A DNA stretch of 30,845 nucleotides, from assembly GCA_002788475.1 (NCBI GenBank), contig PFRK01000037.1, positions 1 to 30,845 on the forward strand, given 5' to 3'. The notes under the pieces were generated by a model. The model worked only from the letters and a program-made list of their open reading frames with translations. It was not told the DNA's origin and searched no databases. Below are positions 8,446 to 30,258 of this stretch, one piece after another (position 1 is the first letter of the stretch; each line of letters starts with the position of its first letter). Position numbers and translations under genes: made by a program. The stretch comes from Candidatus Nomurabacteria bacterium CG_4_9_14_0_2_um_filter_32_10. GTDB taxonomy: Bacteria > Patescibacteriota > Minisyncoccia > Phycocordibacterales > UBA9973.

Positions 8446-9690
8446 TTATCTCCAAGCTGGCTTTCTAGACAGAATAGTATTATAAATAGCTTTTAAAAGC
8501 CAAAAAGGACCAATAGCACTGAAAACTAGAAGAAAATAAATCATATTAAAAGAAAAATCCCATTTTCCATCAACCATTTTTTTACCCAAAGTTATTGATA
8601 AAATAATTAATGAAAATAATAAAATAGCAATAAAAGAAAGAGATTGAGTATTTATAAAAAATGGATCAAAAAAATCAATATTAGAATTAAAGTTAAAACC
8701 TATAGTTTTAAATTCTAAAATTTTAGTAAATAAAAAATTACCCAAAGTATAAATCATTTTCCCAAAAAGATAACTAACTGCAAAAACAGAAACAATACTG
8801 GAAGGAATAGTAAAAAGTGAGAAATTACCATATTTTTTTCTAAAAAGTATCCCTCGATAATCAATCGTATTATTTATAAAACCATAAATCCAACGTAATC
8901 TTTGTTTATATAATTTTGTAATAGTCCCGGGAGTACTAGTATAAACATAAGCATCATTGCATTGCTCTATTTTATAATGATTTTTTTGCATTCTGTAAGC
9001 AATCTCCATATCTTCTGTATTATGAGCATGCCGATATGGACCTAAATCATCAAAAACTTTCTTACGAAATATAGTAAGTGGTCCTGGTGTTACATGTATA
9101 GCCCCTAATAAACCAAGCATCTTTTTTATATAAACAGACATATTATATTCAGCTCTTTGTGCACCTTGAATAATATTTTTTGAACCATTAGCAACAATCG
9201 AAGGAGATACTGCCATAATATTTATATCCTTTTCAAAATAACTCATAATACGAACGAGAGATTCGGGATCTGCAATAGAATCAGCATCAAGGCAACCTAA
9301 ATAATCAGTCTCAATATTTTCAAGACCTAAATTAAGTGCAGTATATTTTCCTCCATTCTCTTTATGAAAAACTTTTATATTAGAATATTTAGAAAATCTT
9401 AAAATAGCTGCCCACGTATTATCAGTAGACCCATCATCTATTAAAAAAATTCTCAACTTGTCTTTAGGATAATTGAGATCAAGAAGAGAACGTACTGTTT
9501 TATATATAGTTTTCTCTTCATTCCAAGAAGGAACGATGATAGTCACTTTTGGATACTTGGTAAGTTTAGTAGGCCCATTTCTTATAATTATTTTCTTCCT
9601 ATTTTCAAGAAAAGTGATTAATAAAAACACCTGTACATAAACAGATAAAAAAGTTAATACATAAAAGACCACATTCGAAATTGAAGCCAT
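8446..9690 (-). CDS. Processive GT2 glycosyltransferase (PgaC/IcaA/cellulose-synthase-like)
   Basis: DDGSTD, CLDADS, TED and QRLRW motifs with flanking TM helices. Confidence 0.9.
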   Translation of the reverse strand: MASISNVVFYVLTFLSVYVQVFLLITFLENRKKIIIRNGPTKLTKYPKVTIIVPSWNEEKTIYKTVRSLLDLNYPKDKLRIFLIDDGSTDNTWAAILRFSKYSNIKVFHKENGGKYTALNLGLENIETDYLGCLDADSIADPESLVRIMSYFEKDINIMAVSPSIVANGSKNIIQGAQRAEYNMSVYIKKMLGLLGAIHVTPGPLTIFRKKVFDDLGPYRHAHNTEDMEIAYRMQKNHYKIEQCNDAYVYTSTPGTITKLYKQRLRWIYGFINNTIDYRGILFRKKYGNFSLFTIPSSIVSVFAVSYLFGKMIYTLGNFLFTKILEFKTIGFNFNSNIDFFDPFFINTQSLSFIAILLFSLIILSITLGKKMVDGKWDFSFNMIYFLLVFSAIGPFWLLKAIYNTILSRKPAWR

Positions 9691-9713
9691 ATATACACTA
9701 TATAATATAACAT

Positions 9714-9852
9714 TTTAAGATAAAAAGCAATAAAAAATACAAATTAGTGCTTTCTGCAACATACGCTTCTGAAAGTTAGTATATTGTTTCCAGGTTGATA
9801 TGTGAGTTGCAAGAAAGTACTTAATTTGTATTTTTTAATATTTTATCTTAAA
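9714..9852. repeat. Long hairpin E2 (30-bp inner stem with 2 bulges, 12-bp outer stem, 45-nt loop)
   Basis: 9731-9760 pairs with 9806-9837 and 9714-9725 pairs with 9841-9852. Loop boxes are identical to E1. Confidence 0.75.
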
Positions 9853-10143
9853 TTACATGTTTCCTCCTGTATTTACACTTGTATCTACAGAAGCATTAAC
9901 TTCACATTTACTACATTTACATTCAAAAATAAACATAATAGCTGCAACTCCTACCAATACATACACAATACCCTCAAGAACGGGTGAAAAACCTAAAACC
10001 ATATTGACAACATTCCAGCCTTCTACACTACCTAAAAACATACCTAAACCTATTAAACCCCAATTTATTCCTCCGATAATTACTAAAATTTTAGTAATCC
10101 AAGTTAATGCACAACTACCTTTACTACAACAACCTTTACACAT
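9853..10143 (-). CDS. DUF378 membrane protein with Cys-rich termini
   Basis: ILVIIGGINWGLIG and IVYVLVGVAA motifs. Confidence 0.85.
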   Translation of the reverse strand: MCKGCCSKGSCALTWITKILVIIGGINWGLIGLGMFLGSVEGWNVVNMVLGFSPVLEGIVYVLVGVAAIMFIFECKCSKCEVNASVDTSVNTGGNM

Positions 10144-10220
10144 AATATTTTATAAAATTAATTTATAATATTTCCCTTCTGAACGACGATTCAGTCGGAT
10201 AAATCTAATAATATATAATA

Positions 10221-10229
10221 ATTATATCA
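10221..10229 (-). promoter_or_regulatory. Extended -10 promoter (TGATATAAT) for the DUF378 gene
   Basis: Consensus TATAAT with a TGn extension, about 80 nt upstream of the ATG. Confidence 0.55.
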
Positions 10230-10261
10230 CATCCCAAAAAGTGCTTCAATAGAAATCAGTA

Positions 10262-11524
10262 TTAATCAAAGTAGTTTTTCAACCTTGCAATCTTTTCATG
10301 CTGGCGAAGTTTTTCATGAACTTTGGCTTCTATCTGACGGATACGTTCACGAGTCACTCCAAATTCTTCCCCTACTCTCTCTAAAGTATGCTGAATACCA
10401 TCAACCAATCCATAACGCATCTCAAGTATTTTACATTCTTTAGGATTAAGTTCATTTAAAACTTCACGAATTTGATCAGACAAAATTCTTCTAGAAGATT
10501 CTTGATCAGGACGTAAAATTTTGTCATCAGGAATGAAATTTTCAAGAGTTGATTTATCATCATCATCTCCTACTGGTTGTTCGAGAGAAATAGTTTCTTG
10601 ACTAATATTTTCAATCACATGAATTTTCTCAACAGGAATACCCATTTCTATGGCAATTTCTTCCGCCAATGGATCCCGACCCAAATCTTGACTAAGTTTT
10701 CTATATGTTTGTTTATATTTTGAAATAGTTTCAACCATATGTACTGGTATACGAATAGTTCTACTTTGATCGGCTAATGCGCGAGTAATAGATTGACGAA
10801 TCCACCAAGTAGCATAAGTAGAAAATTTATATCCTTTAGTCCAATCAAATTTTTCTACTGCTTTAAATAATCCCAAGTTCCCTTCTTGAATCAAATCCAA
10901 AAGACTAAGATTAGCACTCCTACCTACATATTTTTTAGCGATAGAAACAACCAAACGTAAATTAGCTCTAGCTAATAAATTTTTTGCTTCTACATCACCC
11001 AATTCTATTCGTTTTGCAAGATCTTTTTCATCAACTGCATGAATTAGTGCATATTGTCCTATTTCTTTTAAATACATTTGAATAGAATCATGTATAGTGG
11101 ATTTATTTAAATCTTTATCAGAAATATCATTATCTAAATTAAGTAAATTTCCACCTTCCAAAACATCTATCCCAGCAACTGCAAATTTCTCATAAAGTTC
11201 ATCTAAAAATAAAATATTATTTTCGATATTCGGAAAAGTTTTTAATATTTCATCATAAGTAATAAACCCTCTTTTACGTCCTTTCTCTATAAGTTTATTA
11301 GAAAGACGAGTAAATTCTTCCACTTTTTTCCCTCCTGTAACTAATTTTTTAACCTTTGTTTTTTTGACCTGCCTCCCCGCCAACCTCGCCGAGCCTAGGC
11401 GGGCTTTTTTTGATATTTTACGAGACTTCTTAGTTATTTTTTTAACTTTTTTAATTATTTTCTTAACCTTTTTCTTTTTTAAAATTTTCATTTTTTTCTT
11501 TAATTTTTTATTTTTTATTTTCAT
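10262..11524 (-). CDS. rpoD: RNA polymerase primary sigma factor
   Basis: Region 1.1-like [37 protein letters not shown] and [10 protein letters not shown]. Confidence 0.97.
11368..11403. repeat. 36-bp in-frame GC-rich insert in rpoD (peptide [13 protein letters not shown])
   Basis: Ends are CCCGCC...GGCAGG on the coding strand; removing it restores KK-V-KK. Confidence 0.8.
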
Positions 11525-26976: not shown

Positions 26977-27035
26977 AAGTAAAACAAAAAATCAAACAAC
27001 GTTATGTTATGTGTTTTTCTTTTATTATAAATTTA

Positions 27036-27377
27036 TTATCCTTTCCACGCAGACATTATAAAAAGCAAAATAAGTATCATAGGTACAAAAACAAATAATA
27101 TAATTAATAAAAAAGAAATACCAACTACTTTGGAAGTCTTTTTTAGGGCACTATTTTCTTGTCCAGGTAATATTATGCCTTTTTTTTCCAATCTGATGTT
27201 TCGTATTCCACGAATAAATAAAAGTATTCCATATAACAAAAGTAATATAAATGGTAAAATAACCAAAAGTTCCCAAAAGTTTGTCGGTATTTTTGTATTT
27301 ATTAGTGAAAAAACTCCAAAAAAAGTAAGAATCATTCCAATTAATATAAAAACCTCATTTTTATAATCTTTTTTCAT
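27036..27377 (-). CDS. Small multi-TM hypothetical protein
   Basis: 113 aa with three hydrophobic segments. Confidence 0.6.
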   Translation of the reverse strand: MKKDYKNEVFILIGMILTFFGVFSLINTKIPTNFWELLVILPFILLLLYGILLFIRGIRNIRLEKKGIILPGQENSALKKTSKVVGISFLLIILFVFVPMILILLFIMSAWKG

Positions 27378-27457
27378 AATAATATTATTAAATTAATAAT
27401 TACCCTTTACTTTTTTATCATATCATATATATTCAAAGTTAATCATTAAAAATTACA

Positions 27458-27479
27458 CATTTAAGCCATGGCTGATATG
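27458..27479. repeat. CCATGG-centred palindrome downstream of the cas2-like gene
   Basis: Perfect core agccatggct (27464-27473) with imperfect cat...atg extension. Confidence 0.5.
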
Positions 27480-27490
27480 AGGATAAATGG

Positions 27491-27871
27491 CTATAATTTC
27501 TTTATATAAGATTTTGCTAGTTTAAATGTCTTGCAGTTATCTCCTATTTTTATTTCTTTTAAGTAATCTAAAAAGTCTTTTGGTAATGGAGAAGGCCCTA
27601 CCCAAACACTTTTTTGAATCATTATATAACCAAACTTTATTAGTTGTCTTCGAAACCAATCTCTTTCTTTCTTTTTATCAGATGGAATGTCATACATCAC
27701 AATCAAATTTTTAGAAGAATCTTTATTAAAAGGAGAAATAAAGGTAACATTATAGAAAGTCCTCTTTCTATTTTCTTTTTTTGCACGACTTTTTCTCCCT
27801 TCTGAAAAAATCGGAATACCAAAAGAATTTACTTCTATCCCTTTATAAAATAATCTCTTTTTTGAATTCAT
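27491..27871 (-). CDS. Solo Cas2-like / PaaX-central-domain protein
   Basis: LIVMYDIP...ERDWFRRQL..FGYIMIQKSVW matches the Cas2/VapD/PaaX ferredoxin-fold pattern (YDI and QxSV). No cas1 and no array in the window. Confidence 0.8.
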   Translation of the reverse strand: MNSKKRLFYKGIEVNSFGIPIFSEGRKSRAKKENRKRTFYNVTFISPFNKDSSKNLIVMYDIPSDKKKERDWFRRQLIKFGYIMIQKSVWVGPSPLPKDFLDYLKEIKIGDNCKTFKLAKSYIKKL

Positions 27872-27878
27872 ATAAAAA

Positions 27879-27887
27879 ACTATATCA
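27879..27887 (-). promoter_or_regulatory. Extended -10 (TGATATAGT) 7 nt before the cas2-like ATG
   Basis: TGn + TAnnnT. Confidence 0.5.
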
Positions 27888-27889
27888 CA

Positions 27890-27925
27890 AAATCCCCATA
27901 TACACCATGGCGTATATGGGGATTT
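27890..27925. repeat. 36-bp CCATGG-centred palindrome upstream of the cas2-like gene
   Basis: aaatccccatatacaccatggcgtatatggggattt, 17 of 18 pairs matched. Confidence 0.9.
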
Positions 27926-27951
27926 ATTACAATTCTTTTACAACTTCCTAT

Positions 27952-30258
27952 TTATTTTGCAATAGCTACTGCATCGTCTAATTTGACAGAAAGAAGCTTG
28001 GAAGATCCATCATTCCCTATAGTTACCCCATATAACGTACCAGCACGAGACATTGTCTCACGATTATGAGTGACAACAATAAGCTGAGAGGCCCCTGAGA
28101 GTTTTTCTAACATATCTCCATATTTGCGAGAATTTGATTCATCCAAAGCAGCATCCGTTTCATCAAGAACTAAGAATGGTGGTGGATTTACTTGTGACAT
28201 AGCAAAAAGAAGAGCAATAGATGTGAGTGATCTTTCCCCTCCTGAGAGTGCATTTAATTCTTTTACTTTTTTATGTGGGAGAGAAACATTTATCTCAATA
28301 CCCTGTTCAAAAACAATTTCATCTTCATCTCCTTCCTCTCCTTCTTCTTCCTTTCCTCTCTTCTTTTTATTTTCAGTTGTAACAGAGAGAAAGCCTGTTC
28401 CACCATCAAACATTAATGAGAAAAATTTATCAAATTCTATATTTATTTTTTTAATACCTTCTTTAAACTCTACATCAATTTTTTCTTTCAAATCCACCAT
28501 AAGTGTACGAAGTGACTCTATACTTACGACTAAATCTTCCATTTCTTTTGCCAAAAAATTATCTCTCTCTGAAACTTCTTCAAACTCTTTTATTATCTCA
28601 GACCCACCACCCAAACCAACATCTTCCAATTTTATCTTAATGCGTTCGATTTTTCGTCTTAACTCCTCCTGTTCTATTCTGTTTATTATGACCTCTCCGC
28701 CAAAGGCGGATCCGCCTTCAGTGGAAAAATTTTTGTAAGTTAATATCTCACTGCCAATAAGTATTTCACCTTCTTTTATCTCATTTTTAAAGGCTTCTGA
28801 TTCTTTTGATAAAGACTCCTCTTTTATCGATATGAGCCCCAAAGAAGAAGATAATTCTTGCTGTTTAACCCTAAAATTAAACTTTTCTTTTTCTTTTAAA
28901 TGTAAAGCCTCATTTTCTTGGTTAATCTCTTTTTTTAATATTTCTATTTTTTCAAAAATTTTCTTTTCTTCATCTGTAATATTTTGCATTTCAAGCAAAA
29001 TTTCTTGCTGATTCTTTTTTAACTCAGAATTCTCTGAAAATATAGTTTCTGAATGGTCTGGCTGGGATAGGGACCCAGAGAACCGAGAACCTGAAGAAAT
29101 TATATTTCCAGAGAATTCTTTTAAAATATTCTGAATTCTCAAAAGAATAATCTTGATTTCTGCTGCACTATCTTCTACAATAGCTATTTCTATTTCAGAA
29201 TTAATTTCATCAAATATAGCCTTTATTTCTTCAGGGTTTTTTATCGAAACTTCTGGAATTTTTTCACTTCTCCTCTCTTCCATTTCTATCATTCCTTCGA
29301 TTCTTCCCAATTTACGTTCTATTTCATTCTTAACATTACGAATTTCACTTATTTTTTTCTCAAAGATTTTTAATTCTTTTTCCCCGCCTACATCGCTATG
29401 CATAGCATTGTAGGCAGGTTTTTCATTTTCTTCTATATCTGAAATGTTTTTATTTATATCTCCTAATTCTATCTCTATTTTGCTCTTTTCACTAAGTAAA
29501 CTGGACTGCTCTTTTTCTAAATAAATACTTTCTTTCTTTAAATATTCTTTATATAAAGATAAAAGTGACACCTGCATTTCTTTTGCTTTCTCAAATTTAT
29601 CTACTTGTTTTTTTAAAAAATTCAAATGTGGAGCATTTTCTCGACGTAAAAGAGAGACCTCCTTCATATTATTAGTAGTCCTTTCTAGTTTACGTTGTGC
29701 TTCTTTTATTTTATATTGGTAAATTTTAAGTCCAAGAGCATCTTCTACCATCTCTCTCCTATCTCTAGGAGATGCATTCAATATCCTATCTGCTTCACCT
29801 TGGGAAATGATGTGATGCCCAGAAGAACCAATATTAACTGATGATAAAAGATTATTAATATCTTTTAATCTCACCTCCGAGCCATTCAAAATGTATTTAT
29901 TTAACCCATCAGAAAAAACTTCACGAGAAATTGAGATGACATCGTAATTTAAATTAAAATTTTCACCTGTTTCATTAGAAAGTTTAAAAACTTTATCAGA
30001 GTTATCAAAATATATCGTAACAACTGCACGTGAACTTTTTGGCAAATTTTTAGATCCTTTAAAAATTAAATCAGATCCTGATGTTCCACGCATTGACTTC
30101 ATTGATTGTTCTCCTAAAACAAAGCGAAGTGCTTCTACAACATTTGACTTACCAGATCCATTTGGACCTACTATAGAAATAATAGGATTCTGGAATTCCA
30201 AAATTATTTTTTTTGAAAAAGATTTAAAACCATTAATTTCAAGATTCTTTAATCGCAT
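27952..30258 (-). CDS. smc: Short SMC-family ATPase (768 aa)
   Basis: GPNGSGKSN Walker A, LSGGE signature, FLVLDETDAALD Walker B/D-loop and VVTHN; adjacent to rnc. Confidence 0.9.
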   Translation of the reverse strand: MRLKNLEINGFKSFSKKIILEFQNPIISIVGPNGSGKSNVVEALRFVLGEQSMKSMRGTSGSDLIFKGSKNLPKSSRAVVTIYFDNSDKVFKLSNETGENFNLNYDVISISREVFSDGLNKYILNGSEVRLKDINNLLSSVNIGSSGHHIISQGEADRILNASPRDRREMVEDALGLKIYQYKIKEAQRKLERTTNNMKEVSLLRRENAPHLNFLKKQVDKFEKAKEMQVSLLSLYKEYLKKESIYLEKEQSSLLSEKSKIEIELGDINKNISDIEENEKPAYNAMHSDVGGEKELKIFEKKISEIRNVKNEIERKLGRIEGMIEMEERRSEKIPEVSIKNPEEIKAIFDEINSEIEIAIVEDSAAEIKIILLRIQNILKEFSGNIISSGSRFSGSLSQPDHSETIFSENSELKKNQQEILLEMQNITDEEKKIFEKIEILKKEINQENEALHLKEKEKFNFRVKQQELSSSLGLISIKEESLSKESEAFKNEIKEGEILIGSEILTYKNFSTEGGSAFGGEVIINRIEQEELRRKIERIKIKLEDVGLGGGSEIIKEFEEVSERDNFLAKEMEDLVVSIESLRTLMVDLKEKIDVEFKEGIKKINIEFDKFFSLMFDGGTGFLSVTTENKKKRGKEEEGEEGDEDEIVFEQGIEINVSLPHKKVKELNALSGGERSLTSIALLFAMSQVNPPPFLVLDETDAALDESNSRKYGDMLEKLSGASQLIVVTHNRETMSRAGTLYGVTIGNDGSSKLLSVKLDDAVAIAK
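28696..28725. repeat. Family A 30-bp insert in smc (STEGGSAFGG)
   Basis: tccgccaaaggcggatccgccttcagtgga. Confidence 0.9.
29026..29119. repeat. Inverted-repeat-bounded segment inside smc
   Basis: 29026-29050 pairs with 29095-29119 (23/25); GC-rich core with ctggg/cccag hairpin and gagaacc x2. Confidence 0.55.
29383..29418. repeat. 36-bp palindromic insert in smc (PAYNAMHSDVGG)
   Basis: 15 of 18 pairs matched, centred on ATGCAT; ends are CCTGCC/GGCGGG on the coding strand; exactly 12 codons. Confidence 0.9.

Follow-up and report, generated by a model that had tools for sequence, protein, structure and literature searches.

As a dimer, the repressor PaaX binds imperfect palindromes, and its own gene is among its targets. 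The phenylacetyl-CoA-responsive repressor PaaX of E. coli W (8a39) and the protein Rv0674 (3kfw) share a Cas2-like central domain with the 126-amino-acid (aa) protein described here, and they share a winged helix with its longer paralogues, whereas the short form lacks this part. The 126-aa protein further differs from PaaX in that it has neither a PaaX_C domain nor an equivalog-level score, no paa genes were present among the ORFs inspected beside the loci of its family, and its gene lies between two copies of a palindromic site and belongs to a multi-copy family that relocates. Cas2 (S. pyogenes 5zyf, E. faecalis 5xvn) and VapD have in common with the 126-aa protein a ferredoxin-like fold with an Asp that ends the first strand, and relatives of the protein are named Cas2 by NCBI. 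In contrast to Cas2, the protein carries an extra N-terminal hairpin and a basic helix, the rest of its family is fused to a winged helix, and its genome has no cas1 and no detected array. The VapX-type antitoxin partner of VapD is likewise absent here.

The pdif (XerC/XerD) modules of Acinetobacter plasmids are small gene cassettes bounded by dyad sites of about 28 bp, each composed of an arm, a 6-bp centre and a second arm. These sites occur in varied contexts, and the two that flank a cassette are sometimes mutually inverted. The cassette reported here is likewise small, bounded by dyads and found in varied contexts, yet the arms differ between cassettes within one genome.

RAYT genes lie between two REPs in inverted orientation (Nunvar et al. 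2010, PMC2817692). As in the cassette reported here, the gene has a cognate palindrome on either side, of a type that corresponds to the protein clade; symmetry is preserved by compensatory changes, and some solo copies lie elsewhere. The 126-aa protein is not an HUH/Y1 enzyme, however, and the six PF01797 matches of its genome lie elsewhere; solo palindromes here are few rather than tens to hundreds, and true RAYT-like genes, most with their own hairpin, coexist in the same genome. In the literature searched, no description of a Cas2-fold gene located between its own palindromes was found. A paper on TTHA0973 (PMC6651687) was considered and set aside, as it concerns a TetR-family regulator and is irrelevant to a palindrome-bracketed module.

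Results

A Cas2-fold gene between two palindromes downstream of smc

The window, by which we mean the whole stretch of DNA analyzed, is a complete 30.8-kb contig from a genome of 606 kb (31.7% G+C, 97% complete). On the minus strand, smc is followed by a palindrome, a -10 box, the ORF of the 126-aa protein and a second copy of the palindrome (Table 1). The PaaX_M/Cas2-fold gene and its flanking palindromes make up a compact, self-contained cassette of about 0.5 kb. This cassette is common in Patescibacteria of the Nomurabacteria/Paceibacterota type, and the nearest relatives of the 126-aa protein come from organisms named Candidatus Nomurabacteria or Paceibacterota in the source records.

A preliminary description of this DNA had noted a near-perfect 36-bp palindrome 18 nt upstream of the gene and a 10-bp CCATGG-centred palindrome 17 nt past its stop codon, and both were found as described. 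The upstream element ends 18 nt before the ATG and begins 26 nt after the smc stop; its two arms (27890-27907 and 27908-27925), each 18 nt and joined without a gap, are 94% complementary, and its core consists of a 12-nt arm, CCATGG and a second 12-nt arm. The -10 box ends 7 nt before the ATG, which suggests that the mRNA is leaderless. The 10-bp downstream palindrome (27464-27473) by itself folds no better than shuffled sequence, and CCATGG is not enriched genome-wide (47 observed versus 44 expected). It is, however, the core of a decayed 30-nt copy of the upstream element, in which the gene-proximal arm is kept and the gene-distal arm has decayed. This copy shares 17/18 positions with a solo copy on contig C42, and the downstream palindromes of all 15 short-form units can be aligned with it.

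Table 1 Positions of the features discussed. Positions without a prefix refer to the window; a C prefix denotes another contig of the source genome.
Feature	Position	Strand	Remarks
smc	27952-30258	-	
Upstream palindrome	27890-27925		18 + 18 nt with one mismatch; has the smc stop (27952) on one side and the Cas2-fold gene promoter on the other
Extended -10 element TGnTATAGT	27879-27887	-	Read from the sequence; box at the same place in aligned units
PaaX_M/Cas2-fold short-form gene, 126 aa	27491-27871	-	Profile matches, AlphaFold2 model
Downstream palindrome copy, 30 nt	27454-27483		Starts 7 nt after the Cas2-fold gene stop
Solo CCATGG/CTATAG palindromes	C42:5890-5917, C17:1594-1621		Intergenic, 2-4 nt past zinc-ribbon gene stops
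Identical perfect 20-bp palindrome, CCATGG-centred	C22:8797-8816, C2:191-210		In DHFR (C22) and in a comF-like ORF (C2)
28-nt palindrome	C21:10747-10774		Between dnaK (8646-10640, -) and a 172-aa PaaX-like gene (10807-11325, +)
Y1_Tnp genes	C5:1731-1985, C6:2847-3068, C13:13739-14035		
Y1_Tnp genes	C36:229-450, C39:894-1151, C48:8859-9125		

The short-form protein has a Cas2-like fold and no winged helix

Profile searches placed the 126-aa protein above the cut-offs of the Pfam families PaaX_M (PF20803; 52.3 bits, cut-off 24) and CRISPR_Cas2 (PF09827; 31 bits, cut-off 23.8) and of the TIGRFAM cas2 family TIGR01573 (34.8 bits, cut-off 24.5). The score against the PaaX equivalog TIGR02277 was far below its cut-off (20.4 versus 264.55 bits), and Pfam gave no match to PaaX_C in the protein and none to its N-terminal part. 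The first-strand Asp of the YDI motif and the QKSVW motif pointed out in the preliminary description are present (YDIP, D61; QKSVW) and are at least 90% conserved in an alignment of 121 sequences, in which D61, R70, W72, R74, Q86, S88, W90 and G92 reach this level. The Cas2-type Asp is invariant in an alignment of 105 sequences. Median dN/dS over 105 pairs of short forms was about 0.17, and the short-form protein is under purifying selection.

AlphaFold2 models of short and long forms were obtained with pLDDT values of 89-90. The short form is modeled as an N-terminal beta-hairpin (YKG...FGIP), a basic helix and a ferredoxin-like domain (pLDDT 89.5), and the recognition helix and wing of a winged helix are absent from it. 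Its best structural matches in Foldseek were Cas2 chains (probability 1.0, 24-28% identity), followed by VapD and PaaX. The long paralogues are modeled as a winged helix joined to a Cas2-like ferredoxin fold; their winged helix matched the operator-bound DNA-binding domains of CggR, MntR and PadR, and whole chains matched PaaX (8a39) and Rv0674 (3kfw). The absence of cas1 and of an array near the gene, remarked on in the preliminary description, extends to the whole 97%-complete genome, in which a profile search gave no match to Cas1 (PF01867) and a crude repeat screen detected no CRISPR-like array.

The palindrome-gene-palindrome layout is conserved across the family

The preliminary description had named palindromes beside homologous genes, palindrome types that follow the protein clade, and a gene position that varies between relatives as features to look for, and each of these was observed. 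Both palindromes are carried by 15/15 short-form units, which lie in many genomic contexts, and homology among these units begins and ends at the outer edges of the palindromes. Alignment of eight short-form genes from several genomic contexts, together with their flanks, gave a common order of upstream palindrome (12-nt arm, 6-nt centre, 12-nt arm), -10 box, ORF and second copy, the last of these located at or over the stop codon. A TGnTATAAT-like box occupies the same place in the aligned short-form units and across clades; across clades, the median distance from the end of the upstream palindrome to the start codon, with the box in between, was 16 nt, and that from the stop codon to the start of the downstream palindrome was 10 nt.

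Flanking was scored as the best ungapped match between the upstream and the downstream flank of a gene, with a threshold of at least 14. This threshold was reached by 63% of 73 family genes versus 5% of 149 neighboring ORFs, several of the high-scoring controls being ORFs that touch the same palindromes as family genes, and the median scores were 16 and 9, respectively (Mann-Whitney p = 5e-22). Among 75 further loci, sampled independently from other species and all belonging to the long YKG clade, 55/75 (73%) had paired flanks versus 14/75 when the flanks of different units were paired. The layout was also seen in members from other families of the same order (L024, L032). PaaX_M genes occur in 61/61 sampled genomes of the genus, at 1-13 copies each, and near-perfect palindromes accompany short forms even in complete genomes (G006, G017) without a long paralogue of that clade. 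None of the conclusions depends on the unpublished genome G076. The arrangement of palindrome, extended -10 element, putatively leaderless ORF and palindrome is therefore conserved across the family.

Palindromes and protein vary together

Palindrome identity was 25.9/30 within units and 21.3/30 between units (permutation p = 5e-5, a value that overstates the case because related units are not independent). The palindrome centres fall into the classes GCYATRGC, CGATCG, CGGCCG, GCATATGC and CG-RY-CG, and the class follows the protein clade, with 11 changes on the protein tree, whereas shuffling the labels gave 22.9 changes on average and never fewer than 19. An inner motif, GCYATRGC or TCTGC-N4-GCAGA, is conserved by clade. 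The outer arms vary fast yet stay fully symmetric, and compensatory changes are seen in them, such as T...A in the window for C...G in the two closest relatives; the central 4 nt of long-form palindromes can be non-palindromic. Because the arms drift symmetrically and some centres are not palindromic, a stem-loop of RNA or single-stranded DNA fits these sites as well as a two-fold duplex site does. The upstream palindrome differs at 3-4/30 nt from those of genomes G006 and G057, with which dS is 0.64-0.72; it is thus more conserved than synonymous sites and under purifying selection. The two palindromes of one unit evolve in concert. Gene conversion between two repeats that lie 450 bp from each other could account for this, in place of selection driven by the protein.

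The upstream palindrome belongs to the Cas2-fold gene rather than to smc

The upstream palindrome was considered in the preliminary description as possibly just the smc terminator. The 80 nt from 27872 to 27951, which include it, fold as minus-strand RNA with -29.7 kcal/mol (z = -6.8), and the hairpin is followed by the U-run UUUUGUG in the direction of smc transcription; a consensus terminator scan of 27000-28300 called no terminator. Stem ends rich in C/G are found in the three smc-linked copies of this orientation and are lacking in other copies. In the window, the palindrome probably terminates smc as well. The suggestion that it is nothing but a terminator fails, as the element is present at only 4/30 smc loci examined, and at these four the gene is always present too, in one case inverted and truncated. 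The upstream palindrome belongs to the Cas2-fold gene and travels with it rather than with smc.

The family-wide set pointed the same way. The upstream neighbor is divergent in 36/75 loci, and paired palindromes were present in 69% of loci with a divergent neighbor versus 77% of those with a co-directional one. Stem G+C was 58% at the apex and 27% at the base, and a T-rich tail followed the stem in only 35% of cases. Equal pairing beside divergent neighbors, together with the apical G+C and the scarcity of T-tails, indicates that the palindromes are not merely terminators.

The cassette relocates as a block

The neighbor of the unit changes from genome to genome, with smc, lepA, folD and fusA among the genes beside it. 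One genome has two copies that share 93% identity over 444 bp; this similarity breaks off at the palindromes, and the upstream palindrome has opposite orientations in the two. No target-site duplication was seen at the unit borders, nor was a conserved target. The cassette is an accessory element that moves or is duplicated as one block, and gene and palindromes are a genuine module that recurs, relocates and diversifies together across relatives.

At one locus downstream of smc (L040, G008:C7), an inverted copy of the cassette that retains only codons 1-71 of the gene abuts the palindrome beside the smc stop. This remnant is the expected product of an inversion between the two palindromes followed by a deletion.

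Two known routes of mobilization were considered and set aside. Xer/dif modules do not explain the cassettes: the arms differ between cassettes of the same genome (C35 versus C48), the genome has a single tyrosine recombinase gene (PF00589), and a single Xer enzyme cannot read all of these sites. Mobilization in trans by the RAYT-like enzymes of the genome is unlikely, as the hairpins beside their genes have unrelated sequences and, in most cases, loops of 3 nt instead of 4 nt.

Solo copies of the palindrome

The source genome contains approximately 11 sites of the palindrome family, six of which flank three units and about five of which are solo. Palindromes lie on both sides of 2/3 other family genes in the genome (C1, C48). 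The solo copies include an intact one on C42, a decayed one on C17 and the same 20-mer twice, once in an ORF on C2 and once in an ORF on C22. Those on C42 and C17 come after two paralogous genes, each for a zinc-ribbon protein of about 560 aa, and may thus have been copied when these genes were duplicated. Next to the C42 palindrome lie a -10-like box and then the start of another zinc-ribbon paralogue, the same geometry as that of the cassette.

The palindrome within DHFR encodes the heptapeptide YLRHGVD, which replaces native residues of equal length. It is found at the orthologous site in three other genomes, whose DHFR is 57-67% identical and differs at nearby synonymous sites; that it is shared in spite of these differences points to conservation at the DNA level or to repeated rewriting. 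At L010, in another genome, the 20-mer shared by DHFR and the comF-like ORF borders a short-form cassette. The C48-type palindrome has a third copy, which lies within argS on C48, in a variable loop of ArgRS, to which it adds only about two residues. The copies inside ORFs had been considered as clean in-frame insertions, and this was not supported, given the equal-length replacement in DHFR and the roughly two extra residues in ArgRS.

A family member divergent from dnaK

A single-copy member of the family, the fixed one among the 1-13 family copies of a genome, is located divergently from dnaK and holds this position in many genomes. Its palindrome lies upstream only, in the promoter region shared with dnaK (Table 1), and occurs once in the genome; its sequence is conserved in several relatives examined. 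A terminator role makes no sense in a divergent promoter region. Judged by this arrangement, the member looks like an ordinary autoregulated repressor, a set-up that supports the binding of palindromic DNA as the ancestral activity of the family. HrcA was not found in the source genome, and the dnaK-linked member may be a heat-shock-type regulator in place of HrcA/CIRCE.

G+C-rich repeats and RAYT-like genes

The genome is full of G+C-rich palindromes, and the title of the preliminary description had cast the Cas2-fold gene as a candidate partner of these in-frame repeats. This proposal did not hold, as the cassette palindromes are a separate small family and the genome has RAYT-like genes with hairpins of their own. 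Six Y1_Tnp genes (PF01797; RAYT/IS200-like) of about 220-230 aa are present (Table 1). A G+C-rich hairpin lies beside those on C5, C13, C39 and C48, its arms having 44-78 matches genome-wide when one mismatch is allowed; on C39 the hairpin is found on either side of the gene. A transposase gene with such a hairpin next to it is the classical partner arrangement for these repeats, as described for REP/RAYT (PMC2817692). For the C36 gene, a G+C-rich hairpin about 220 nt downstream was seen only in the palindrome census. With six RAYT-like genes, five of them accompanied by hairpins, the Cas2-fold gene is not needed as a partner of the repeats. The in-frame G+C-rich palindromic inserts are most likely driven by the RAYT-like transposases rather than by the Cas2-fold gene. 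The caveat entered in the preliminary description, that the flanking CCATGG palindromes share no sequence with the families of G+C-rich inserts, is correct.

Discussion

The reading we favor, to which we give about an even chance, is that the cassette is an accessory, relocating unit whose protein product would recognize its own palindromes, the upstream copy being an operator over the promoter. A dimer of the Cas2-fold protein would recognize both palindromes. The upstream one covers the -35 and spacer region beside the -10 box, and binding there would repress the gene itself. The downstream copy would be a second site and would form a hairpin at the 3' end, and the upstream copy in the window, with its G+C-rich stem ends and U-run, would double as the smc terminator. 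The cassette moves or is duplicated as a whole. Counting against an operator is the absence from the short form of the recognition helix and wing by which PaaX-type proteins bind DNA, while the palindromes of short forms persist where no long paralogue of their clade is present. Two models had been offered in the preliminary description, a selfish module of nuclease plus hairpin and an autoregulated gene whose operator is the palindrome. Both survive, with the second favored and with the addition that the cassette itself is mobile.

The first of these models makes the protein a metal-dependent nuclease or synapsis factor that acts on the terminal palindromes in hairpin or cruciform shape and moves or copies the cassette, and occasionally single palindromes, in the manner of REP/RAYT yet without an HUH enzyme. 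We consider it unlikely, though much of what was observed at the unit borders is in keeping with it: the units have discrete ends at the palindromes in many contexts and number 1-13 in the genomes of a single genus, the orientation of the upstream palindrome differs between two copies with 93% identity, and one relative has an inverted, truncated copy after smc. The Cas2-type Asp is invariant among 105 sequences and at least 90% conserved among 121, solo palindromes exist, some of them inside ORFs, and RAYT genes likewise lie between two inverted REPs (PMC2817692). Such a module would, however, have to be reconciled with the small number of solo copies (about five versus six flanking copies, two of them after paralogous zinc-ribbon genes), with the lack of a visible target-site duplication or conserved target, with ORF-internal copies that are not clean insertions, and with a vertically conserved family member that resembles an ordinary regulator.

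The palindromes could instead be structural hairpins (terminators, insulators or stabilizers of mRNA 3' ends) that travel with an often-duplicated gene and are homogenized by gene conversion, the protein not binding them and acting otherwise, for instance as an RNase, in a toxin-like role or in partnership with other members of the family. That proteins related to the short form, Cas2 and VapD, are nucleases according to the titles of their structure entries agrees with this, as do the missing winged helix, the arms that drift while remaining symmetric, the loop-like central 4 nt of many units, and the strong fold and U-run right after smc. We nevertheless think it improbable that hairpin structure is the whole explanation. 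Pairing is kept equally often beside a divergent upstream neighbor, the stems have their G+C at the apex and mostly no T-tails, the terminator scan called none here, the inner motif is conserved by clade (GCYATRGC or TCTGC-N4-GCAGA), and the palindrome of the dnaK-adjacent member lies in a promoter region.

It is highly improbable that the Cas2-fold gene seeds in trans the G+C-rich in-frame palindromic inserts of the genome: gene and repeats do occur in the same genome, but the flanking palindromes share no sequence with the G+C-rich families, and five of the six Y1_Tnp/RAYT-like genes have an adjacent G+C-rich hairpin. A chance pairing of an ordinary smc terminator with a random CCATGG site, which is barely conceivable although CCATGG occurs at chance frequency and the 10-bp palindrome folds like shuffled sequence, is refuted by recurrence in 15/15 short-form units and in most of approximately 150 family loci.

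Returning to self-recognition of the palindromes, its boldest form, for which the prospects are rather poor, is that a Cas2-fold protein without a winged helix specifically recognizes, and perhaps cuts or synapses, the palindrome or hairpin that bounds its own gene. If the Cas2-fold part reads or cuts the palindrome, this would be a new activity for the fold. The cassette would then represent a new kind of mobile unit that combines a gene with its repeats, similar to REP/RAYT but non-HUH, and a living relative of Cas2 tied to palindromic repeats outside CRISPR, with a bearing on the origin of the association between Cas2 and repeats.

Automatic annotation has produced thousands of "Cas2" and "PaaX" proteins in Patescibacteria (1,825 clusters at 90% identity, 1,283 at 50%), in genomes that mostly lack both the CRISPR system and the phenylacetate pathway that these names imply. 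Genes that lie in cassettes between their own palindromes allow such names to be corrected. The hundreds of natural variants are ready-made pairings of protein and site, a natural specificity code, and the cassette is an accessory module that relocates and is abundant in some of the smallest genomes known. The analysis also separates two repeat systems within one genome, the G+C-rich in-frame inserts and the palindromes of the cassette.

The 3' flank of smc (27000-27951 in the window) is a hotspot of variable content in relatives (loci L038-L065). Across genomes it holds a Cas2-fold cassette, a response regulator, DUF559/Vsr-like genes, solo palindromes or nothing. The DUF559/Vsr-like endonuclease genes that follow smc at L042 and L050 are flanked by CCCTCTCC...GGAGAGGG repeats, and solo long palindromes occupy the flank at L053 and L054. 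Family cassettes were also located within a few kb of argS in five genomes compared, the corresponding region here being C48:21787-25189.
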